NCBI GenBank assembly: GCA_963737265.1
Contig: CAVTRY010000011.1
Location: forward strand, 608,001 to 672,000
Reading direction: 5' to 3'
DNA: 64,000 nucleotides
Origin: an uncultured delta proteobacterium
GTDB lineage: Bacteria; Myxococcota_A; Polyangia; Fen-1088
Part shown: one piece after another, positions 53,255-64,000 of the stretch
Position numbering within the stretch: position 1 is the first letter of the stretch
Layout: every line of letters begins with the position of its first letter
Translations under genes and position numbers: made by a program
The notes under the pieces: model-generated
Seen by the model: only the letters and a program-made list of their open reading frames with translations
The model's database searches: none
What the model was told of the DNA's origin: nothing

Positions 53255-53410
53255 AGATTCCTCGTGGTTGGGTTGCCCAGTTCTGGCATAAGAACGAAAC
53301 AGAGTCGCCCATTTTCGCACCCCGTGGACCAACCCGGCCGGTATTCCCAATTGGCGGGCGAGTCGGGTTAGTGTCTTGGTGATTTCGTGTTTATTCGAGA
53401 GGATGTCATC

Positions 53411-55774
53411 ATGACCGATCAGCAGACGCTTTCACGGATCGGGACGGTCTATTTTCTCGCGACGATTCTTGTCGCCTGCGCGGGGGCCAAGGTGGGCAGC
53501 GGCGACCAAGGAGGTACGAGCCCGGGTGGAAATGGTGTTGTTGTTGGCGGCGGCGGCACCACTGGAATCTCCATCAACCTCGACGGCGGGCCCTCTATCG
53601 GGGGAGTCGGTACGGGCGGGACAGGCGGCTACCAGCACCCCGCCACCAAGAATTTTCCTGAAGAAGCTACCTGCCAGGGCGCCTCGGGTCAGTGGGGCGA
53701 AGCCCTGCAGAAGGCGCTGTGGTTTCTCAATGTGAACAAGTCCGGGCCGGGTGTGCTGTCGACCTACGTTCAGTGGCGAGGCGATGCGCACCTGATGGAC
53801 CAGCACATCAAGTTGAGTCCAACCGATCCGACTGGCGTGAATATGTCGCAGGCATTCATCGACCAGAATCGCGCCGTGCTCGATCCCAAGGGTACCGGCG
53901 AGGTCGACCTGTCGGGCGGATTCCACGACGCCGGCGACTACATCAAGTTCGGCCTGACGACGGGTTTCACCGCGTCCACCGTGGCGTGGAGCCTCTACGA
54001 ATTTCCCGATTCCTTCCGTATCACGGGACTCGAGGACGAAACGCTCAACCTTCTACGCTGGGCCGACGACTACTTCATGAAGTCGACCTTCCTGGACAAC
54101 AACGGCAATTTCGTGGCCTTTGCCCATCAGGTTGGCGACGCCTCGGATCACACCTGCGGTTGGATGCCGCCCGAGCTGCGACGCGTCGACTTCTGCCCAC
54201 GCAAGGGCTACTTCGCCACCGCCGAGACGCCCGCGGCCGACGTTACGGCGAGCGCGGCCGCGGCGCTGGCGCTGACGTCGCTCGTGATCAAAGCCAAGGA
54301 CGCGGACTACGCGCAAGCCTGTCTCAAGTACGCCACCGCTCTTTACAAATTCGCCGCCCAGCACCCAGACACCGTCGGGAACACAACCGGAGGACTCTAC
54401 ACGTCCGAGTACGCGGCCGACGATCTGGCCTGGGCCGCCATCTGGCTGTATGAGGCGACGGGGACGCAATCCTATCTCGACGACGTCCTCGGCGTTGGCG
54501 GCGCTGGCGGCGGCTGGCTCGACCACTTCCCTGGCTTCAAGACCACCTGTCTGCAAAGCGCGGGAGCCAGCTGTTGGACCGAGTCGCAGACGCACGACTG
54601 GAACTCGGTCAGATCCGGCGTGTTCCTGAAACTCGCGCAGATTTTGCGCGATACCAACAGCCCTCTGGCCAAGGGGATGGCCATCATCGCGCGCGACGAC
54701 TCCATGAAGTGGCCGCAGGGCACTGTGGCCATGACACCGGCAGGGTTCTCCGTGCTCTACGCCTACGGCTCGGCCCGCTATAACTCGGCGGCGCAGTTCG
54801 TCGCCTTGCTCTATGCCAAGCTCTTCGGCGCGAAAGATCCGGACGCCGTTAACGCCATCACCCCCTGGGCCAAGAAGCAGATGGCCTACATCTTGGGCAG
54901 CAACCCGCTTGGTAAGTCGTACATGATGGGGTTCACCGACAACTACTGCAACCAGCCCCACCACGCCGCCGGCCACGCCTCGATCTGGGGCGAGCCCAAC
55001 AACCCGGTGGCCAACCGCCACATCATCTGGGGCGCTCTCATCAACGGTCCCGACGCCGCCGACGGTCACATCGACAACCGCGCCGACTTCGGCAGCAACG
55101 AGGTCACCATCGACTATAACGCCTCGCTCATCGCCGCCCTCGCCGCCCAGTATTCGCTGCAAGGAAATGGGCAGTGTCCCTTGGCGCAGTTCCCGCCGGT
55201 CGAACCCGAGATCGACGAATACTACACGCTTTCCAACCTCAACTCCGGGGGCTCCTGCCGTTCCCAGGTCACGGTCACGCTCATCAACGAGACCATCCAT
55301 CCGCCGCGCTACAACGAGAACCTGAGCGTGAAGTACTTCTTCGACATCAGCGAACTGCAGGCCCAGGGCAAGTCCATCAGCGACGTCACGGCCAGCCTGA
55401 TTTACGACCGCGGCGCCACCGAATTCGGCCAGCCATCCAGCATCGCCTCTCCCAAGCTTTGTCCCAAGAGCTCTTCGACCTACTACGTGGAAATGGGCTT
55501 CGCGGGCTACGACTTCTGGGGCCGCATCGTCCAGCTCAAGGCCCCGCGCACCTTCATGCTCGATATCGGCACCGCGAACGGCGCCGACTGCGTCTGGGAT
55601 CCATCCAACGACTGGAGCTACGCTTCCCTGCAGCCGGCGCCAACCGACGGTAGCGACCCGCCCAAGACGCCCCACATCACGGTGTATAGCAACGGCATCC
55701 TCGCCTGGGGCGAAGAGCCGCCCTGCTTCGACGAAACGGTCACGCCTCAGCCGCCGCCGATCTGGATCCCGTAG
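53411..55774 (+). CDS. GH9 endoglucanase with C-terminal CBM3-like module, lipoprotein
   Basis: Lipobox LVAC; DLSGGFHDAGDYIKF, PHH, D..ADF..NEVTIDYNA catalytic motifs; CBM3 features KYFFDISEL, YYVE, WDPSNDWSY, WGEEP. Confidence 0.93.
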   Translation: MTDQQTLSRIGTVYFLATILVACAGAKVGSGDQGGTSPGGNGVVVGGGGTTGISINLDGGPSIGGVGTGGTGGYQHPATKNFPEEATCQGASGQWGEALQKALWFLNVNKSGPGVLSTYVQWRGDAHLMDQHIKLSPTDPTGVNMSQAFIDQNRAVLDPKGTGEVDLSGGFHDAGDYIKFGLTTGFTASTVAWSLYEFPDSFRITGLEDETLNLLRWADDYFMKSTFLDNNGNFVAFAHQVGDASDHTCGWMPPELRRVDFCPRKGYFATAETPAADVTASAAAALALTSLVIKAKDADYAQACLKYATALYKFAAQHPDTVGNTTGGLYTSEYAADDLAWAAIWLYEATGTQSYLDDVLGVGGAGGGWLDHFPGFKTTCLQSAGASCWTESQTHDWNSVRSGVFLKLAQILRDTNSPLAKGMAIIARDDSMKWPQGTVAMTPAGFSVLYAYGSARYNSAAQFVALLYAKLFGAKDPDAVNAITPWAKKQMAYILGSNPLGKSYMMGFTDNYCNQPHHAAGHASIWGEPNNPVANRHIIWGALINGPDAADGHIDNRADFGSNEVTIDYNASLIAALAAQYSLQGNGQCPLAQFPPVEPEIDEYYTLSNLNSGGSCRSQVTVTLINETIHPPRYNENLSVKYFFDISELQAQGKSISDVTASLIYDRGATEFGQPSSIASPKLCPKSSSTYYVEMGFAGYDFWGRIVQLKAPRTFMLDIGTANGADCVWDPSNDWSYASLQPAPTDGSDPPKTPHITVYSNGILAWGEEPPCFDETVTPQPPPIWIP

Positions 55775-56110
55775 GACAAGCCCGGGCTTCGCCCGCAGTA
55801 GATCAGCGTCGCGGCCGCGGAGCGGGCGGCGTTGCTGTTGCGCCATCCTCGGGCCACCGCGCTGCACGCCCAAGCCCTGGCCCGCACGGCCGCCTGCCTC
55901 GCAACCTGGTGGCGAGCGCGGAGACTGGCTGAACTGACGACACCTCGACCAGGGCGGGATGGAGTAGACTGCCCTGCGTGCTCAACAGAGACCCCGTCAG
56001 GCCCCAGAAACCCGGTCAAGCGCGCTGCGCCAACGTGATCGGGGCCGACCTGATGCGGTCCGGCATGGTTCTCCGACGCTCAAAAAACCCATTCGAAATG
56101 CCTATGGTCA
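55470..56110 (+). repeat. 641-bp direct repeat, copy 1 (GH9 3' end + IS91-like right end)
   Basis: Near-identical to 60251-60893; I found only a 2-bp indel and one substitution. Confidence 0.95.
55830..56110 (+). mobile_element. IS91/ISCR-like remnant A1: decayed transposase C-terminus and oriIS-like end
   Basis: LLLRH/LGPPRCTPKPWPARPP..GDWLN* (stop 55937), then ATGGAGTAGACTGC motif and terminal CCCATTCGAAATGCCTATGG. Confidence 0.65.
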
Positions 56111-56150
56111 TGAGGCGCAGAGGTGTTTTGCAGCGAGGGCAGACGGTGTC

Positions 56151-56319
56151 GGCGACCTTCGCGGGACGCCATGGGGTACACTGCGCCCCGTGTTCGCGAC
56201 ACACCCTCAAACCTCCCCCGCGACAATCCCGCGTTTTGGCACCGGCCCACTCGCAAGCAACTCGGCCCGGCCTCGAAGGGTTCTCGCTCGTCGCAAAAAC
56301 CCTTTCGAAAGGACTAGGA
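56151..56319 (+). mobile_element. IS91/ISCR-like remnant B: diverged right end only
   Basis: ATGGGGTACACTGC at 56171 and AAAAACCCTTTCGAAAGGACTAGG end, with the same 142-bp spacing as A1. Confidence 0.6.
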
Positions 56320-56408
56320 TCCTCAGGCACCGCCTAGGCACCTGCGACTGCTCAGAGTTTCCGAGCTTGTGTTACCATGGCTGAGCGCCCTGAAATCAGG
56401 AGGTTCGG

Positions 56409-57726
56409 ATGCCCGGTCCTGCTCGCACCATTCTAGATAATCTAGGCAAGCAAACCCTGAGACGGCTGTGCGAAGAGCGTGGATTGCAAACCGCCAGAGA
56501 GCTCGATGAAATGCGCGCCCGCCTCGCACATTCCTTCAGGGGTGACACGAAAGAACTCGTAGACCGTCTTTCCCGGAGAGAAATGCAGCAGATTCTCGAT
56601 GTCTGGGAATTTGAAGTTGACGGACACTATGGGGGCTTGGTGGGTGTGTCATATGCGTCGAAGGATGACCTCGCGAAGGCTGTGCTGGTTATCTACGAGG
56701 ATGGCTGGGGCCCAACAAGTCGAAGCCTGAGCCCGGTGGGGAGTGGATCTCGGTTGCGTGTTTCGATCGATGACGAGACAGATTTGGAGGATTGCGCGCA
56801 TAAGCCCGAAGCTGAGGGTGGCCCCCAGACCGAGGAAGAGGCCGCCCAGCCGTTCGACGACGAAGGAGAAAGAAGCTTTCTCGCCGATCTCTGATTCGAA
56901 ACTCGCCGAGCGAGGTCGCACCACCACGTACATTCGCAGGCTGGTGAACGACCTTGGCAGACACCACGCCGAACATCGCCTTCGGTTGAGCGCCGTTCGA
57001 CACGTTGGCCACGTGCTTGTGAGCGCTGGAATGTCTACAGACCCCGATCTGTCGACAATGACCGCAGCACCTGGAATCGACGCCCGCGTTGTCGTCATCC
57101 GGCGCATGGCCTCACCTAGGAGGAGGCACGATTCGGCAATTACGCGCGACGTTATCTCGCGCTCAGATCCACCACCCGGAACGATGAGGATTCGGCCACC
57201 GACAGCACCATCACCGGTACCTTCCGCACAACCTTCCGGATTCGAGATGGCGAACGAGCAACTGAAATTCCTGGTTACTGTCGCCACTTCGATCAGCATT
57301 CTGAACCAAGAAGGGCGAGCGCAGGCCGTCGAGATGGCTTCGGAGGGAATCGAACTTAGCGCGGCGGATCGAATCCGGTTGAAGGCATTCTCCCATCAAT
57401 ATGCCGGTGGCAACTTCGAATTAGGGCGCACTTTGGCCTATCTCCGCGCCGGACTTCCGGAACGCAGGCGGCAGCAGTTGCTCGATTGTCTCCTCGTACT
57501 CGCGCCGACCTGTCAAGCACTAGACGAAGCGCGGGAGGCTCATGCAGTTGAACTAGGGGTACAAGCGCGTATCGAGTCCCCGCCCTCGGCCCCACCTGCG
57601 AATAGCCAACAGACGGTCACTCCCGCCCAATCCACGAAATCCGAGCCAATCGGACAAGGCCAAATCGAGGCTGGCGGGGTACGACAGAACGAAGGACTCG
57701 ACTCAGTCTTTGGAAAGGGGACGTAG
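56409..57726 (+). CDS. Hypothetical multidomain protein with TerB-like C-terminal region; apparent 1-bp insertion near 56892
   Basis: AGGAGG RBS at ATG 56409. ORFs 56409..56894 and 56743..57726 fuse as ERSFLADL-DSKLAERG if one T is removed. Helical C-domain resembles TerB-like folds (by eye). Confidence 0.6.
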
Positions 57727-57728
57727 TC

Positions 57729-59789
57729 ATGGGCAACCAAGGAACGATTGACTCCGACGCCACCCTTGCCCGGGCTGTCTATGGGACGCGTGTTGTTGAC
57801 AAGAGCCTTTCAGGAGAAGAGGCATTTGCACGCCTTCCTCGCTTTGTTACCGAGTATCTCTTCGCAAAATATGTGCGCCCAGGGCGCGAACAGGAAGACT
57901 TGCAGTCCTTGAAGGAGAAGATTCGCGGTCGCATTCCGGAGGCTGACCAGAAAGAAATAATCAAGAACCGGCTCATGCGGGACGGTGAATATGTCGTAAT
58001 CGATCAACTAGAAGCCGAGGTTGATCTCGTCGAGAACTGTCACCGCGCGCGCTTGAACTGCCTGGATTCCGAATCGATTCAAATCGATGCCGATCTCGTA
58101 GATCGTTTTGAGGGCGTCCTGAGTGGCGGACTATGGGGAACCGTGACCCTCAGATACGATTCCTCAGCACCCCCAAAACTGAAGATTGCTGTCAAAGCCT
58201 TCGTTCCATTTCAGCTTGACCGTCCCGACGTCGATGGGTTCAAGAAAGGGCGGAGCCGCTTTGCTCTTGATGAATGGATCCGCCTGCTTCTTCGAAGCGC
58301 GGGGTACGAGCCTGACACAATCCCGAGCGAGCGCCAGAGATGGTTGCTTCTTGCCCGGATGATCCCACTGGTCGAACGAAATTTGAATCTGATCGAGCTT
58401 GGGCCGAGGGGTACGGGCAAGACCTTTCTACTCAGAAATCTCTCTCCGACGGTGTTCACCATCTCGGGAGGTCGACCTTCGCCGGCAACCCTTTTCATTC
58501 ACAAAGTCTCGCAGCGACTCGGCATCATAGGCACGCGCAAGGTGGTTGTATTTGATGAGATTGCCGCAACCACTTTTCCAGACCGGGAAACTGTTGCTAC
58601 TCTCAAGGATTACATGGAGAGCGGGCAGTTCAGTCGGGGCAGGAAGGTTGTCGCGTCCGACGCAAGTCTGGTCCTGACCGGGAATCTTGAGGTTTCCGGC
58701 GATCAGCCCAGCGAGCAATACACCCATTTGTTCCAGGAGCTGCCAGCGCCGTTAGTCGATGCCGCATTCTTGGATCGAATTCATGGGTACTTGCCAGGCT
58801 GGGAGATACCGAAAGTGAGTGAAGCGTCTCTAGCCCAAGGCGTTGGGTTTGTGACTGACTATTTTGGAGAGGTATTGAAATCGCTCCGAGACGATGATGT
58901 CGCGCGGGCACTTGATCCTGTTGATCCTGGCGCCAGCGCAACAATTCGTGACGCAAGGGGCGCGCGCCGAATCGCCTCCGGAATGTTGAAGCTGCTTTTC
59001 CCAGACGGAAGCCATTCAGAAGAAGACGTAAAGCGATGCATGCGGTTTGGGATCGAGCTGCGACAACGCGTCCACAACCAGCTGACCCAGATTGCCCCAG
59101 GAGAGTTCGCGCGAAAAGTCCTCGCATTTCCGGGCATGGAACCACATGAGGCACGCGACCTGGTGGAGTCGAGAAAAGTTCAAGAACGCGACGTGCGCGC
59201 CAATCGTGAGCCGGTAGTTGGACAAGTGACAGGCTTGGTCGTGTTGCAGACGGGTGGTGTGATTACTGGTGGCGATGTCTTCTTCACGGAGGTTTCATTG
59301 TTGCGCGGACGGGGTGGCGCGGGCTTTAGCATCACCGGCTTGAGAGGACCGGTCCTAAATGATTCAGTTAAGACAGCTTTCCAAGTGCTCCAGCAACTAG
59401 GGGGTCAGTGGAAAGGCGTTCCCCCACGCCTCGCAGATTCGACGGTGGCGGTTCACCTGGTGAACATCGCAGATCCTAAGGAGGGACCTTCCGCCGGTGT
59501 CGCGTTCGTTACAGCGATGGTCTCGGCGGCGTTAGGAATCCCTGTGCGGCCAGCCTTGGCCATGACGGGGGAAGTAACTCTTCACGGTTTCATCGGTCAG
59601 GTTGGCGGCATCGTCCACAAACTCAAAGCAGCCGTCCAGCACCAGCGCAAGCTCGTGATTATTCCTGCGCAGAACGCCGGTGATCTTCGCGACGTCCCCG
59701 ACGACATACTAACTGCCGTCGAGATTCGCACGGTAAGTCGGATCGAGGAAGTCCTGGAACTGGCTCTGGAACGTCTGCCCAATGACTAG
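57729..59789 (+). CDS. brxL: BrxL-like Lon-related AAA+ ATPase with S16 protease domain
   Basis: PRFVTEYL N-domain, ELGPRGTGKT Walker A, VVVFDE Walker B, LKDYMESGQFSRG, AFLDRIHGYLPGWEIPK; protease PKEGPSAG with Lys 43 residues downstream. Confidence 0.88.
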   Translation: MGNQGTIDSDATLARAVYGTRVVDKSLSGEEAFARLPRFVTEYLFAKYVRPGREQEDLQSLKEKIRGRIPEADQKEIIKNRLMRDGEYVVIDQLEAEVDLVENCHRARLNCLDSESIQIDADLVDRFEGVLSGGLWGTVTLRYDSSAPPKLKIAVKAFVPFQLDRPDVDGFKKGRSRFALDEWIRLLLRSAGYEPDTIPSERQRWLLLARMIPLVERNLNLIELGPRGTGKTFLLRNLSPTVFTISGGRPSPATLFIHKVSQRLGIIGTRKVVVFDEIAATTFPDRETVATLKDYMESGQFSRGRKVVASDASLVLTGNLEVSGDQPSEQYTHLFQELPAPLVDAAFLDRIHGYLPGWEIPKVSEASLAQGVGFVTDYFGEVLKSLRDDDVARALDPVDPGASATIRDARGARRIASGMLKLLFPDGSHSEEDVKRCMRFGIELRQRVHNQLTQIAPGEFARKVLAFPGMEPHEARDLVESRKVQERDVRANREPVVGQVTGLVVLQTGGVITGGDVFFTEVSLLRGRGGAGFSITGLRGPVLNDSVKTAFQVLQQLGGQWKGVPPRLADSTVAVHLVNIADPKEGPSAGVAFVTAMVSAALGIPVRPALAMTGEVTLHGFIGQVGGIVHKLKAAVQHQRKLVIIPAQNAGDLRDVPDDILTAVEIRTVSRIEEVLELALERLPND

Positions 59790-59811
59790 CTAGCGAGGCG
59801 CGATGCGATGC

Positions 59812-60250
59812 GCATAGGCGAATCGAATGGGGTACTCGGACCACCACACCCTCGCGCGCACCTGGACAGCATGGCGGAGCGGGTTTGGCCGGCGGGATTC
59901 GCGTGGCGAAAGGTCTGTCTTGACCACGAGCGCAGTCTACCCCATGGCGAGCCCGCCTAGGTCGCCTTGATCAGTTCAGCCAGGCGTCGCCGCTACCAGT
60001 CTTGCGGGGCGGCGGACGCGCGGGGCGTAGCTGAGCGACGGGCGCGGCGAAGCCGCGTGGGGGCCTTGCGCTTGTTTGCTGGGCCGGCTGGCGCTGCCCC
60101 AGTGGTAGCAGCCGCGAGCAACCTGGCCAGGAGCGGATCCTTCTCCGCCATGGTCTCGTCGCTGACGACGGTGACCTCGCTGTCGCCCGGCGCGGCGACT
60201 AGGGTGATGACGCTGCGGCGCTGGAGGAAGCGGAGAATGCGCTTGCTGGC
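59812..60250 (-). mobile_element. IS91/ISCR-like remnant C: internally deleted transposase and oriIS-like end
   Basis: Minus strand KRILRFLQRRSVITLVAAPGD..LLARLLAAATTGAAPAGP fused out of frame to RPARPPPRKTGSGDAWLN* (stop 59971), then ATGGGGTAGACTGC and CCCATTCGATTCGCCTATGC. Confidence 0.7.
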
Positions 60251-60893
60251 GCTCTTCGACCTACTACGTGGAAATGGGCTTCGCGGGCTACGACTTCTGG
60301 GGCCGCATCGTCCAGCTCAAGGCCCCGCGCACCTTCATGCTCGATATCGGCACCGCGAACGGCGCCGACTGCGTCTGGGATCCATCCAACGACTGGAGCT
60401 ACGCTTCCCTGCAGCCGGCGCCAACCGACGGTAGCGACCCGCCCAAGACGCCCCACATCACGGTGTATAGCAACGGCATCCTCGCCTGGGGCGAAGAGCC
60501 GCCCTGCTTCGACGAAACGGTCACGCCTCAGCCGCCGCCGATCTGGATCCCGTAGGACAAGCCCGGGCTTCGCCCGCAGTAGATCAGCGTCGCGGCCGCG
60601 GAGCGGGCGGCGTTGCTGTTGCGCCATCCTCGGGCCACCGCGCTGCACGCCCAAGCCCTGGCCCGCACGGCCGCCTGCCTCGCAACCTGGTGGCGAGCGC
60701 GCGGAGACTGGCTGAACTGACGACACCTCGACCAGGGCGGGATGGAGTAGACTGCCCTGCGTGCTCGACAGAGACCCCGTCAGGCCCCAGAAACCCGGTC
60801 AAGCGCGCTGCGCCAACGTGATCGGGGCCGACCTGATGCGGTCCGGCATGGTTCTCCGACGCTCAAAAAACCCATTCGAAATGCCTATGGTCA
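60251..60893 (+). repeat. 643-bp direct repeat, copy 2 (GH9/CBM3 3' fragment + IS91-like end A2)
   Basis: ORF 60268..60555 is identical to the GH9 C-terminus; the match runs to ...ATGCCTATGGTCA. Confidence 0.95.
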
Positions 60894-60894
60894 G

Positions 60895-61356
60895 ATGCGC
60901 TCTCCAGGCAAGAACCTAATCGCGAGGCTTCTGGCGACCAGTTCGCCGTCCGCCGTGGTGCTCATGCGACTGACCGTGGGGGCCGTATTCCTTTCCGAAG
61001 GCATTCAGAAATTCCTATTCCCGGCCGCGCTCGGGGCCGGTCGGTTTGCCAAGATAGGTATCCCTTGGCCGGAGTTCAGCGCGCCCTTCGACGGGGGTTT
61101 TGAGGTCGGTTGCGGTCTTCTGGTCCTTGTCGGCCTTGGAACTCGGCTCGCCACGCTCCCGCTCATCGTCGACATGTTGGTTGCCATCGCGACGACGAAG
61201 ATCCCGATGCTTTTCAAGAGCGGGTTCTGGAGCACGCTGCACGAGGCACGGACCGACTGGTCGATGCTCCTTGGCGCGCTTTTTCTCCTGATCGTTGGGG
61301 GCGGCGCCTGGTCGCTCGATGCGTGGCTCGCTCGACGAGACACCGCGCGTGACTGA
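60895..61356 (+). CDS. DoxX family membrane protein
   Basis: LMRLTVGAVFLSEGIQKF, GLGTRLA, GGGAWSLD. Confidence 0.9.
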   Translation: MRSPGKNLIARLLATSSPSAVVLMRLTVGAVFLSEGIQKFLFPAALGAGRFAKIGIPWPEFSAPFDGGFEVGCGLLVLVGLGTRLATLPLIVDMLVAIATTKIPMLFKSGFWSTLHEARTDWSMLLGALFLLIVGGGAWSLDAWLARRDTARD

Positions 61357-61876
61357 CGGGGCTGCGAGCGAGCCCGACCGGCTGGCGCCAAACCGGCTAC
61401 GGAATATGGCATGGTTCTTTCTGCGCCTGGGATTCACGGCGTTCGGTGGGCCGGCGGCTCATGTTGCGATGATGGAAGAAGAGGTCGTCCGGCGGCGCGG
61501 CTGGCTCAAGCGAGATGAGTTCCTCGATCTCCTCGGCGCGACCAACCTCATCCCCGGCCCGAACTCAACGGAGATGGCGATCTTCATCGGGCACAAGCGA
61601 GCTGGTTGGCCCCGTCTGGTGCTTGGCGGTGCGTGCTTCGTCCTGCCCGCCGCGCTGATAACCCTTGCGTTTGCTTGGGCATACGTCCGATTTGGCTCCA
61701 TCCCACAGGTGGCGGCGCTGCTCTACGGAGTCAACCCGATCATCATCGCGATTGTGGTGCAGGCGCTTTGGGGGTTGGGGCGAACCGCGGTGAAGTCGCG
61801 GATGCTGGCGGCTCTTGCCGTGCTCGCGGCGGTCGCGAGCTTCGCAGGGCTCAACGCGCCCCTGGTTCTGCAATGA
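61349..61876 (+). pseudogene. chrA: Chromate transporter ChrA, N-terminal half only
   Basis: GFTAFGGPAAH, IPGPNSTE, FVLPA; ends abruptly at APLVLQ* with no second domain or partner gene. Confidence 0.8.
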
Positions 61877-62165
61877 CTTCGCACCGATCGATTGCGGCGC
61901 TTGCCATCGGCATCCTGCTCTCGCCCGCGACCGGGTACGCGGGTCCGCCCTACGTGACGGATGACCCCCCAGCCCGTGGAATTCCGCCACTGGGAGTTCT
62001 ATCTGGCAACCCAGCATTCCGTTACCCATGAGGCCGCATCCGGAACCGCTCCGCACATCGAGGTGAACTACGGTGCCTTGCCTGGACTCCAGCTTCACGT
62101 AATCGCCCCGCTGGCGTACGCGCATTCGAGCGATGGTCTCACGTTCTACGGCCTGGGCAACATGT
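61873..62165 (+). pseudogene. Fragment of secreted/outer-membrane protein (GPPYxTDDP N-terminus), frameshifted and truncated
   Basis: Signal peptide + GPPYVTDDP, frameshift in the C-run near 61966-61970, continues QPVEFRHWEFY..EVNYG..LQLH, then breaks off. Confidence 0.65.
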
Positions 62166-62257
62166 GTGCAGGTTTGCACCAAGTTCTACGCAAGAGGAAT
62201 CGTCTCGGCCTTGACGGCATCCAATAGCGCGTCGATGCCGACCAAGGAAAAGCCGCG

Positions 62258-62875
62258 ATGTCGAAACTGACGGTCACGTCCTTTGTGAGCCTGGATGGCG
62301 TCATGCAAGCGCCCGGCGCGCCCAAGGAAGACCCGAGCGGTGGTTTCGCGCACGGCGGTTGGTTGGTGCCCTTCGCCGACGCCGACATGGGCGCCTTCAT
62401 GGTCGGAGTATTCGCGCGCGCCGATGCATTCCTGCTCGGCCGCGGAACGTACCAGATCTTCGCGTCGCACTGGCCACGGGTCTCCGACACGAACGATCCT
62501 ATCGCCCTGGCCTTGAACGGATTGCCCAAATACGTGGCCTCGAAGACCCTGGCCAAGGTCGACTGGAACAACGCCTCGCCGGTGCGGAACATCGTTGAGG
62601 ATCTCGGCGCCATCAAGAGCCGCCACGCCCGCGAGCTGCAAGTGCATGGCAGCCCTGGCCTCATTCAAACCTTGATCCGTCACGAGCTGGTCGACGAATT
62701 CAACCTGCTCACTTTTCCCGTCGTGCTGGGCACGGGAAAGCGCTTGTTTGGCCCAGGCTCCATTCCCGCCGCGCTCAAGCTCGCGAGTTCCCGCACGAGC
62801 AGTACAGGCGTCGTCATTTCCACCTACGCCCGCGCGGGGCGCCCCAGCTACGGCTCGTTCGCGCTCGACGCTTGA
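62258..62875 (+). CDS. Dihydrofolate reductase/RibD C-terminal domain protein
   Basis: FVSLDGVMQAPG, LLGRGTY, KYVAS, VHGS, LVDE, PVVLGTGKRLF. Confidence 0.92.
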   Translation: MSKLTVTSFVSLDGVMQAPGAPKEDPSGGFAHGGWLVPFADADMGAFMVGVFARADAFLLGRGTYQIFASHWPRVSDTNDPIALALNGLPKYVASKTLAKVDWNNASPVRNIVEDLGAIKSRHARELQVHGSPGLIQTLIRHELVDEFNLLTFPVVLGTGKRLFGPGSIPAALKLASSRTSSTGVVISTYARAGRPSYGSFALDA

Positions 62876-63115
62876 GGTGACCAAAGTCGTGCGAAGGAAT
62901 CGACAATCAGTTGTGAGATGAGGGCACCAGTAAACCCGTTTAGTTGGTAGGTTTCTCGGATACCTTCGCCGGTGCCGGGCAGCGGAAGTCGTTTTTGCGG
63001 TATACGTCTTTTCGGTCCCCGAGGGACCTGGCGAGGCTCGAAGGCGAGAAGTAAGGAGTCCCCGTCACGAGCTGGTCGATGCTCGCCGGCTGAGACATGG
63101 TCGTAATACTGGCCA

Positions 63116-63754
63116 TTAGTCCGCTTCGATGCCAACGCGCAATCCGAGGGTAAGAATCGCTTGCCGAAGAGTATCGTCGGCCGAAAGACGACCACTCCGC
63201 CGGGTGCCGCGAAGCGCTGAACCAGCGCGGTCACCGAACAGGACAAGCGCCTTATCCTGGTCGCGCTTGCAGGATATCCAGAGCAGACCGTCCACCTTAT
63301 GATACTGCCGATGCAGAGCTTGTGCCCACAGTGCGGTGTTTAAGTAGTCGGTGGGCGGACTCTCGATCAGCTCGTCCTTCGGGATCTTGAGAAGATGAAG
63401 ACGATCGGTCGTCAAGTCGATGAGCTTCAGGTCACGGTCTGGTATTACCACTCCATGGGACCGATCGCCGAATTCGTCCAAATCTACGAACTTGTCTGGC
63501 GCATCGATTGGTACGTTGTGGAAGATGGTCTCGAAGATAGCTCCCTCAAGCGACGAGCCACCGTAGAGATAGGGCACTGGCTTGCCGGAAGAGTCATGAA
63601 TCGGAGCGAAGCGGGTCGGCTTAGTCGGTGCAGCGGCGAGGTTGAAGCTTTGTGGCTCGAAGTCGGTATGGTGAATCGTGTGGATCTCGGTGCCGGCTGG
63701 CCAGCCATAGACATTGGCAACGAGCGACTTTCCCGGCGGGAGACGGCAGGTCAA
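63116..63754 (-). CDS. RES domain toxin (NAD+ phosphorylase-like)
   Basis: TTG start overlapping the antitoxin stop; RFAP, LYGG, FETIFHNVP, WAQALH, DGLLWIS, LVLFGDR. Confidence 0.85.
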   Translation of the reverse strand: MTCRLPPGKSLVANVYGWPAGTEIHTIHHTDFEPQSFNLAAAPTKPTRFAPIHDSSGKPVPYLYGGSSLEGAIFETIFHNVPIDAPDKFVDLDEFGDRSHGVVIPDRDLKLIDLTTDRLHLLKIPKDELIESPPTDYLNTALWAQALHRQYHKVDGLLWISCKRDQDKALVLFGDRAGSALRGTRRSGRLSADDTLRQAILTLGLRVGIEAD

Positions 63755-64000
63755 GCCGCGCTCCCTCCGGCATCTCGGCGGGCCGCCTCGATCACGTCTT
63801 TGGGCGACGAGGTCAACAAATCCACGGGGCGTGCCTGGTTCGGAAGCCAACCGTTGTTCGACGTGAACCATAGCGCCAACTTCCACGGAGACTTCCGTTC
63901 GCCGAACGCTTCGATGATCTCCCGCACAGCCTTGATCGGGCGGTGGTCCTCGAACTGAAACAGGGGAAAGACCTCGTGTTGTCCCTTCTTGGCATCGCGA
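63751..64000 (-). CDS. Xre/MbcA/ParS-type antitoxin, C-terminal part (5' end outside window)
   Basis: Not in the ORF track. Reads FPLFQF..SPWKLALWFTSNNGWLPNQARPVDLL..VIEAAR*; coupled to the RES gene. Confidence 0.85.
   Translation of the reverse strand, partial: RDAKKGQHEVFPLFQFEDHRPIKAVREIIEAFGERKSPWKLALWFTSNNGWLPNQARPVDLLTSSPKDVIEAARRDAGGSAA

Follow-up and report, generated by a model that had tools for sequence, protein, structure and literature searches.

A two-gene unit pairing BrxL with a TerB-like protein looks like an uncatalogued stand-alone module in an uncultured Polyangia bacterium

Introduction

The mechanism by which BrxL restricts phage has yet to be settled in the biology of bacteriophage exclusion (BREX) systems. 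In the excerpts of two papers that we draw on (PMC12839542, PMC10164562), the BrxL of BREX is a ring around double-stranded DNA whose C-terminal Lon-like domain is without the Ser-Lys dyad, and this Lon domain is described as inactive in the systems studied so far. TerB domains are known from the Shango and Bunzi modules, and the part of the corresponding preprint used here (10.1101/2022.05.11.491447) gives a sensing role for TerB as its authors' hypothesis. Here we describe a two-gene unit in which a BrxL protein is paired with a single TerB-like partner. It lies in a stretch of 64,000 nucleotides, referred to throughout as the window, which corresponds to C11:608001-672000 in the genome (6.55 Mb in 25 contigs) of an uncultured bacterium of the Polyangia lineage Fen-1088.

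The observation of the two-gene BrxL and TerB-like unit is confirmed by the analysis below, the redeployment of BrxL with a single partner is supported by sequence comparison, and the pair looks like an uncatalogued stand-alone module. Literature searches, which did not cover supplements, returned no paper in which TerB is paired with BrxL or with a Lon-like protease, and none on "BrxL-like".

Results

The two-gene unit and its BrxL protein

The unit comprises the following features, all on the forward strand:

56342-59804, forward: two-gene module, a shared 3.46-kb unit delimited by alignments to loci L007 and L083/L084 and by contig ends of run X4
56398-56403, forward: ribosome-binding site (AGGAGG) of gene 1, whose ATG at 56409 follows after 5 nt, read from the sequence
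56409-57726, forward: gene 1, the partner, with predicted SAP, winged-helix-like and TerB-fold domains and a C-terminal tail motif, assigned from intact homologues, DNA alignment, hhalign and a fold model
57729-59789, forward: brxL (gene 2), 686 aa, with BrxL_N, an MCM-like AAA+ ATPase and a Lon protease domain

Both genes run in the same direction, with a gap of 2 nt between the stop codon of gene 1 (57724-57726) and the brxL start at 57729. An earlier note on this DNA, made from the sequence alone, had described a compact two-gene unit with an AGGAGG ribosome-binding site and a 2-nt gap; both can be read directly in the sequence, and the coordinates that it gave for the module correspond to a real unit, the shared block. 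The pair is also, as had been claimed, less GC-biased than the surrounding genes, with a GC content of 0.55-0.59 against 0.61-0.69 in the flanks and a third-position GC content of 0.59-0.62 against 0.75-0.83 for the neighbouring genes. A promoter scan returned 0 sites, and the terminator scan gave a score below the shuffle mean.

Gene 2 matches the Pfam families BrxL_N (PF20442, 2.2e-24), BrxL_ATPase (PF13337, 1.6e-106) and Lon_C (PF05362, 5.3e-42) as well as the PADLOC model for BrxL (1.2e-144), and it passes the NCBI model TIGR02688 with 437 bits against a cut-off of 329. The Walker A motif (GPRGTGKT) stands at residue 225 and Walker B (VVVFDE) at residue 272. A Lon dyad is formed by Ser588, within a GPSAG motif that begins at residue 586, and Lys631 at +43, and these two residues align onto the catalytic pair of the Escherichia coli Lon protease domain (1rr9, 120 bits). 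The BrxL AAA+ signature and the intact Ser-Lys dyad that had been noticed by eye are thus borne out by models and by alignment to the sequences of solved structures. The closest solved structure is the BREX BrxL 8emc (phmmer, 313 bits over residues 18-664), and the 8emc chain has other residues at both dyad positions.

To place this protein among its relatives, one genome per species was scanned, yielding 64 loci with a BrxL relative. We refer to 39 of these, in which the BrxL is 46-99% identical to that of the window, as the clade; the other 25 loci belong to other BrxL clades. In an alignment of 35 clade BrxLs (A4), the Walker A Lys and the Walker B Asp-Glu are kept by every member, and both the Lon Ser and Lys are kept in all 31 that have a Lon_C domain. 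Four members (4/35; L035, L036, L038 and L039, the last from Zavarzinella formosa DSM 19928) stop after the ATPase and have no Lon domain, with the partner retained. Among six BrxLs encoded next to PglZ, the Lys is absent in all six and the Ser in five. Comparison of the window with L083 at 92% DNA identity gave a ratio of nonsynonymous to synonymous substitution rates (dN/dS) of 0.07 for brxL. As for the wider reach of the protein, the clade is not rare in metagenomes, where 599 protein clusters match the window-clade BrxL at E up to 1e-100, and plasmid BrxLs are all at most 34% identical to it. The clade proteins appear in public records only as "ATP-dependent Lon protease" or "BREX system Lon protease-like protein BrxL", so annotation pipelines would report a partial BREX or nothing.

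Conservation of the pairing

Two partner families were distinguished, and their alignments were converted into hidden Markov models (HMMs): A2, from 25 partners of the planctomycete type, and A3, from 18 partners of the window type. With both HMMs run on all six-frame open reading frames (ORFs), the partner was found directly upstream of brxL and on the same strand in 36 of the 39 clade loci, and 25 of these 36 matches had built the A2 profile, so that 11 are independent. The three clade loci with no upstream partner are L011 and L028, where the contig starts, and L037. No locus of the other BrxL clades (0/25) contained a match to either profile. Pfam itself finds TerB in the upstream ORF of 20 loci. 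A separate scan of metagenomes with the partner profile placed BrxL 3-16 nt downstream in five of five loci (four distinct), the BrxL being 64-96% identical and the partner falling to about 30% identity. Wherever both genes were called, they are at most 36 nt apart or overlap, and the pairing holds in both of the diverged partner families. The genome of L037 (G032, Gemmataceae) is the sole split case encountered: its short BrxL is unpaired, and a partner gene lies on another contig (C159:8431-9852).

The pair stands apart from BREX

None of pglZ, pglX, brxC, brxA or brxB is present in the 64-kb window, in agreement with the earlier note. A whole-genome family search located PglZ and BrxC only some 320 kb away and gave no match to BrxA or BrxB anywhere in the host genome. 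The distant genes form a BREX-like locus (L006, C11:338000-356000) with PglX, an OLD/HEC-01B-like ATPase, BrxC, PglZ and a BrxHI helicase. At that locus PglZ comes as two ORFs, and both BrxC and PglX appear truncated; further assembly indels may be the cause.

The presence of these host genes raises the question of whether the pair is a BREX accessory that acts in trans, supplying the BrxL function to a BREX encoded elsewhere. The arrangement in Sorangium lends this some weight, as the pair there is divergent to BrxE, BrxA, BrxB and BrxC, with a PglZ 23 kb off. That PglZ, the second copy of genome G001, is the nearest to any partner-linked BrxL; PglZ is never adjacent to a clade BrxL. In four genomes (G001, G006, G017 and G019) PglZ, in G001 the first of its two copies, stands beside a second BrxL, which scores 405-445 bits against PF13337, the partner-linked BrxLs scoring 337-366 bits. 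The trans reading is opposed by the 28 of 39 clade host genomes that have no PglZ match, a count that includes incomplete metagenome-assembled genomes (MAGs) and in which one of the 28 is a 6.5-Mb single chromosome. It is opposed also by the separate clade and different active-site state of the pair's BrxL, and by the helicase of the host BREX, a component reported, in the excerpt of PMC12839542 used here, to replace BrxL. We regard a role in trans as distinctly unlikely.

The separation was also seen in a FastTree phylogeny of 68 BrxLs, from which four rows (a duplicate, two fragments and a spurious ORF) had been dropped and in which labels were assigned by locus, not per row. Here 40 rows from partner-type loci fall on one side of a branch with an SH-like support of 98, and the remaining rows are six PglZ-adjacent BrxLs, 11 from Bacillota and 11 from Deinococcota and Thermotogota, the last of which do not form a single group. 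The earlier note had named, as an outcome refuting its reading, that the closest homologues always sit in full BREX; this was tested and not found. The pair recurs in 36 of the 39 clade loci and in the five metagenome loci. Conserved pairing, a separate branch, 28 of 39 host genomes with no PglZ match and a PglZ that is never adjacent support the earlier suggestion that BrxL is redeployed outside BREX with one partner.

Two further settings of BrxL-like proteins were encountered in these scans. In Bacillota (Sulfobacillus and MAGs; L042, L044-L051, L061 and L064) two ATPase genes of the BrxC/BrxD type precede a BrxL-like protein whose Lon site is degenerate, a further context of BrxL other than classical BREX. 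In Thermus, Meiothermus and Deinococcus a short, Lon-less BrxL-type ATPase follows a Tubulin_2 protein (~910 aa) and an unknown protein (~680-700 aa), and Thermotogaceae loci have DUF6084 in place of the Tubulin_2 arrangement (L053-L058, L060, L065 and L067; also L052 and L059).

The reading frame of gene 1

In this assembly gene 1 is broken by one extra base at 56891 into two overlapping ORFs (56409-56894 and 56743-57726). A word-indexed search with the first frame retrieved intact homologues (P0005-P0007; 437, 439 and 406 aa) that read through the break site. Public contigs from all three runs that span 56891 are without the extra base, one of them being otherwise identical; the contigs of run X4 leave the position uncovered. 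The dN/dS of gene 1 against L083 is 0.18 and 0.19 in its two frames. As the contigs of three of three runs are without the base, and the distant pglZ of the host is likewise split, we read the break as probably an assembly error, or a strain variant, rather than decay. Programmed frameshifting was considered as a candidate and dropped, since the intact homologues and the other contigs simply do not have the base.

These data bear on the possibility that the locus is a dead fragment, a piece of a BREX operon carried off by an IS91 element and now decaying. Such a history would fit the IS91 remnants that lie on both sides of the pair and a gene 1 that is frameshifted here and in L007, where DNA alignment A1 reveals a different 1-nt deletion about 150 nt downstream of the break in the window. 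The gene upstream of brxL, however, is not pglZ, the pairing is widely conserved with purifying selection on both genes, the catalytic motifs are all intact, and the extra base is absent from the covering contigs. We consider this explanation largely refuted and give it very little credence.

Domains of the partner and its C-terminal tail

The gene 1 frames of the window gave no match in Pfam, PADLOC or NCBIfam, and the TerB family PF05099 gave no match at E up to 0.1 to P0002, P0003 or the intact P0005. An exhaustive search identified gene 1 relatives at 35-44% identity, and alignment A3 of the window-type partners has five conserved blocks parted by acidic or Pro-rich linkers. Four of its 18 members match PF05099 directly (best E 2.5e-5), and two match SAP. 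A comparison of A3 with A2 by hhalign gave a probability of 95% (E 3.7e-8) across the stretch where Pfam puts TerB in the planctomycete partners; run as single sequences against A2, P0003 gave a weak match (17%) and P0004 nothing. The Sorangium partner is the weakest A3 member, BLASTP of P0003 against it was not significant, and its kinship rests on an N-terminal match together with alignment A3.

An AlphaFold2 prediction of the partner (five models) has a mean predicted local distance difference test score of 75.9, with values of 80-97 in the folded blocks and below 50 in the linkers. The model was compared with 48,161 chains by VIA-align. Residues 277-390 matched the tellurite-resistance protein 2ou3 (Z 9.3, root mean square deviation of 3.3 Å over 106 residues) and 2h5n (Z 9.1), the next row scoring 7.3. 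Residues 1-58 matched the SAP domains of FAN1 (Z 6.5), PIAS1 (6.2) and Ku70 (5.0), and residues 150-235 matched winged-helix proteins at Z of about 5. A Foldseek search of the whole model against PDB returned nothing at E up to 0.001, the A3 profile had no match among PDB sequences at E up to 1, and the ESM Atlas held no usable match to the partner. As judged from the models, these comparisons point to a gene 1 product with predicted SAP, winged-helix-like and TerB-fold domains, followed by a conserved C-terminal tail. The TerB-like call of the earlier note therefore stands by way of the Pfam matches of relatives, the comparison of the A3 and A2 profiles and the fold model; in the window's own protein it is not visible.

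In the planctomycete-type partner, a long coiled coil is combined with a helix-hairpin-helix module (PDB profile matches of 2e-5 to 3e-3), and a model of one such protein (L014:2735-4438) contains a TerB fold with a Z of 11.8 to 2ou3. After the TerB fold comes a J-like fold (Z 7.8 to Tim14-Tim16 and HscB) that has no counterpart in the window-type partner. J domains usually carry H-P-D at the place where the consensus of this region reads D-P-x-K.

At the extreme C-terminus, both partner families share the motif R-x-N-x-x-L-D-x-x-F, with a G after it in most cases. Of the 25 A2 partners 23 carry it, as do all 18 A3 partners, the Sorangium copy being looser, and the partners of the four Lon-less BrxLs have it as well. 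Since the latter keep the motif, the tail, if it docks on BrxL, would target a part other than the protease.

IS91-family ends and a probable capture of the module

Alignment with L007 delimits the module sharply, as the two loci are 98.4% identical over 3463 bp (56342-59804) and their flanks are unrelated. L083/L084 are 92% identical over 56341-59789, and contigs of run X4 have loose ends at 56352 and 59802. The surrounding features are as follows:

53387-55774, forward: GH9 cellulase gene with CBM3 (Pfam Glyco_hydro_9, 7e-107, and CBM_3)
55470-56110, forward: left direct repeat of 641 bp, with the last 305 nt of GH9, an intergenic stretch and an E unit, 99-100% identical to the right copy
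55867-56110, forward: E unit, non-coding, ~245 bp, which forms the terminal region of an IS91-family element present in multiple copies (blastn)
56111-56341, forward: diverged E-like unit that abuts the left end of the module (alignment A5)
59805-60049, reverse: inverted E-like unit directly next to the module's right end (inverted repeats I1, I3 and I4; alignment A5)
60050-60247, reverse: IS91-family transposase fragment, residues 228-292 of 436 (tblastn, 80% over 66 aa, E 3e-14)
60251-60893, forward: right direct repeat (GH9 3' end and E unit)

The E unit has about 30 further blastn matches on nine contigs. In full copies of the IS91 element it borders, on the 3' side, a gene with Y2_Tnp (PF04986, 2.5e-16) and Zn_Tnp_IS91 (PF14319, 4.8e-15) domains, and IS91-family transposase matches of at least 300 aa number 11 in the genome. 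The first 41 nt of the unit at 56111-56341 match an inner piece of the insertion sequence (IS) and are 100% identical to several IS copies. In L083 and on a contig from run X2, brxL is likewise followed by an inverted E-like unit. The earlier note had seen IS91-like ends on both sides, and the inverted E-like copies that flank the pair agree with this, with a transposase fragment on the right; beside the module, no intact transposase was found, only the 66-aa fragment.

The 3' end of GH9 occurs in three copies in the contig, the third just past the window beside hrpB. Among same-genus genomes, one has GH9 and hrpB adjacent with nothing between, and four others have different DNA there. From this anatomy we infer that the module was captured by an IS91-family element and then entered downstream of GH9 by homologous recombination, which would have duplicated the 641 bp. 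A second insert occupies window positions 60894-64000 and continues to about 64448 (L004:1-450), between copies 2 and 3 of the GH9 end; it encodes DoxX, a chromate transporter, RibD_C and, at 63116-63886 on the reverse strand, a RES-domain toxin. The site downstream of GH9 seems to take up cargo repeatedly. Elsewhere in the genome (L005, C14:438000-452000, and C23:540-545 kb) IS91 copies form arrays in which the E units are spaced 3.6-4.7 kb from each other, with other ORFs between them, including a helix-turn-helix transposase-like protein and a weak MmeI_N match, which suggests that the IS91-family element shuttles several kinds of cargo in this genome.

Distribution and genomic neighbourhood

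Of 201 genomes sampled from one planctomycete family, 60 have a partner of the A2 type. When the A3 profile was run over 401 genomes of the window's phylum, four of the 400 others matched, in the N-terminal part only and none beside BrxL; this count is a floor, because a stricter first look was applied. A tblastn search of plasmids and phages with the partner returned no match. No PADLOC model, SngA included, matched any of 27 partner proteins, so the PADLOC check proposed for the pair returned a clear answer for gene 2, which is BrxL, and none for the partner.

Defence genes lie beside the pair in a minority of loci. They include an Mrr type IV enzyme (L008), LmuB-like (L024 and L028) and MkoA-like (L030 and L034) genes, TIR-NB-ARC-TPR genes (L016 and L023) and the BREX genes BrxE/A/B/C (L031, from Sorangium sp. 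So ce388). On one metagenome contig (L087:2-5471) the pair comes immediately after a DrmMI methyltransferase of the DISARM type (1212 bits) and a PNP_UDP_1 protein (PADLOC candidate PDC-M60C), an arrangement that might represent a larger system or a composite island of defence genes. The earlier note had proposed to test whether the pair lies inside defence islands; defence genes flank it in the several loci named here, and most other neighbours are ordinary.

Such neighbours are in keeping with a housekeeping or stress module that serves DNA repair, replication restart or protein quality control, in the manner of the Lon-domain helicase RadA, and has no phage role. The folds of the partner point the same way, as they occur in repair proteins (SAP in FAN1 and Ku70, helix-hairpin-helix in XPF and Rad51), and so do the J-like domain of the planctomycete partner and the C-terminal domain of BrxL, which resembles that of RadA according to an excerpt of PMC10164562. 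A housekeeping role sits poorly with the patchy distribution within the planctomycete family, with the sparse and partial matches in the window's phylum, with an identical module in unrelated flanks tied to IS91 remnants and with the defence genes beside the pair in several loci. We judge this explanation rather improbable, although it is a stronger contender than a BREX role in trans.

Discussion

We favour, with somewhat better than even confidence, the reading that the pair forms a two-gene module complete in itself, which moves horizontally, has no need of BREX and is most likely an antiphage or anti-mobile-DNA system. The defence function is what we infer from the context described above. 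In this reading BrxL would encircle double-stranded DNA in the manner of the solved BREX protein, and the partner would bind DNA through its SAP and winged-helix-like domains, its tail tethering it to the N-terminal or ATPase part of BrxL, much as adaptors such as SspB dock on AAA+ proteases. The TerB domain might gate the system on an infection cue, after which the ring would block replication of foreign DNA and the protease might degrade the partner or a phage protein. A more specific proposal, to which we give tentative and slightly less than even credence, is that BrxL acts here as an autonomous immune effector, a Lon/MCM-like ring predicted to be catalytically competent and coupled through a C-terminal docking peptide to a DNA-binding TerB sensor. 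Possibly, the window-type BrxL resembles BrxL as it was before BREX recruited it and silenced its protease.

Several findings weigh against the favoured reading. The gene 1 protein of the window gives no TerB match in any HMM library, and the fold match to 2ou3 is not decisive alone, since it is a helical bundle at Z 9.3, and for bundles below about Z 13 the likeness may be no more than a common arrangement. The frame of gene 1 is broken in this assembly and, elsewhere in the gene, in L007; the BrxL of L037 has no adjacent partner; and most of the flanking genes scanned are ordinary (ApbE, GroEL, PilM, RtcB and transporters). Lastly, four clade members with no Lon domain still keep the partner. 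Proteolysis would therefore not be essential everywhere, which, so far as the sequences go, argues against cleavage as a universal mechanism.

If the more specific proposal is true, the pair would be a minimal two-gene system, widespread in planctomycetes of soil and peat and in myxobacteria-like lineages, in which the action of BrxL on DNA could be studied without the other five BREX proteins. A natural two-gene form would show that BrxL works outside BREX and would be simpler for genetics and biochemistry. It would also be the third TerB-containing module after Shango and Bunzi in which to ask what TerB senses.

Comparison with known systems

Like Shango and Bunzi, the pair joins a TerB-fold protein to an ATP-driven, DNA-acting partner. 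Unlike them, it has no match to the SngA/B/C or Bunzi models among the 27 partners, and it differs from Shango in that the ATPase is BrxL in place of a Shango ATPase and helicase, and in having two genes, not three.

SspB is an adaptor that docks on AAA+ proteases, and DjlA combines TerB and J domains. The partner is similar in anatomy to SspB-type adaptors, as it combines folded domains with a flexible linker and ends in a short conserved peptide, and the planctomycete partner has, like DjlA, a TerB fold and then a J-like fold, the window-type partner being without the J-like domain. Neither SspB adaptors nor DjlA have a sequence relationship to the partner.

Complex class 1 integrons of the ISCR1 type are explained as an IS-captured circle that entered by homologous recombination. 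The locus appears to share their anatomy, a cargo and an IS91-family remnant flanked by a direct duplication of host sequence, and differs in that the duplicated segment is the end of a GH9 gene, the cargo is not a resistance gene and the mechanism is read from anatomy only.

The C-terminal domain of the window BrxL is like the Lon protease S16 (1rr9), with Ser588 and Lys631 aligned on the catalytic pair and thus predicted to correspond to it, whereas its ATPase is BrxL/MCM-like with a DNA-binding N-terminus, not a Lon unfoldase module. The BrxL of type 1 BREX (8EMC/8EMH), at about 30% identity, differs from that of the window, which has the Lon dyad, no linkage to PglZ, PglX or BrxC, and a separate clade; the two proteins nevertheless share a three-part architecture and identical Walker motifs.

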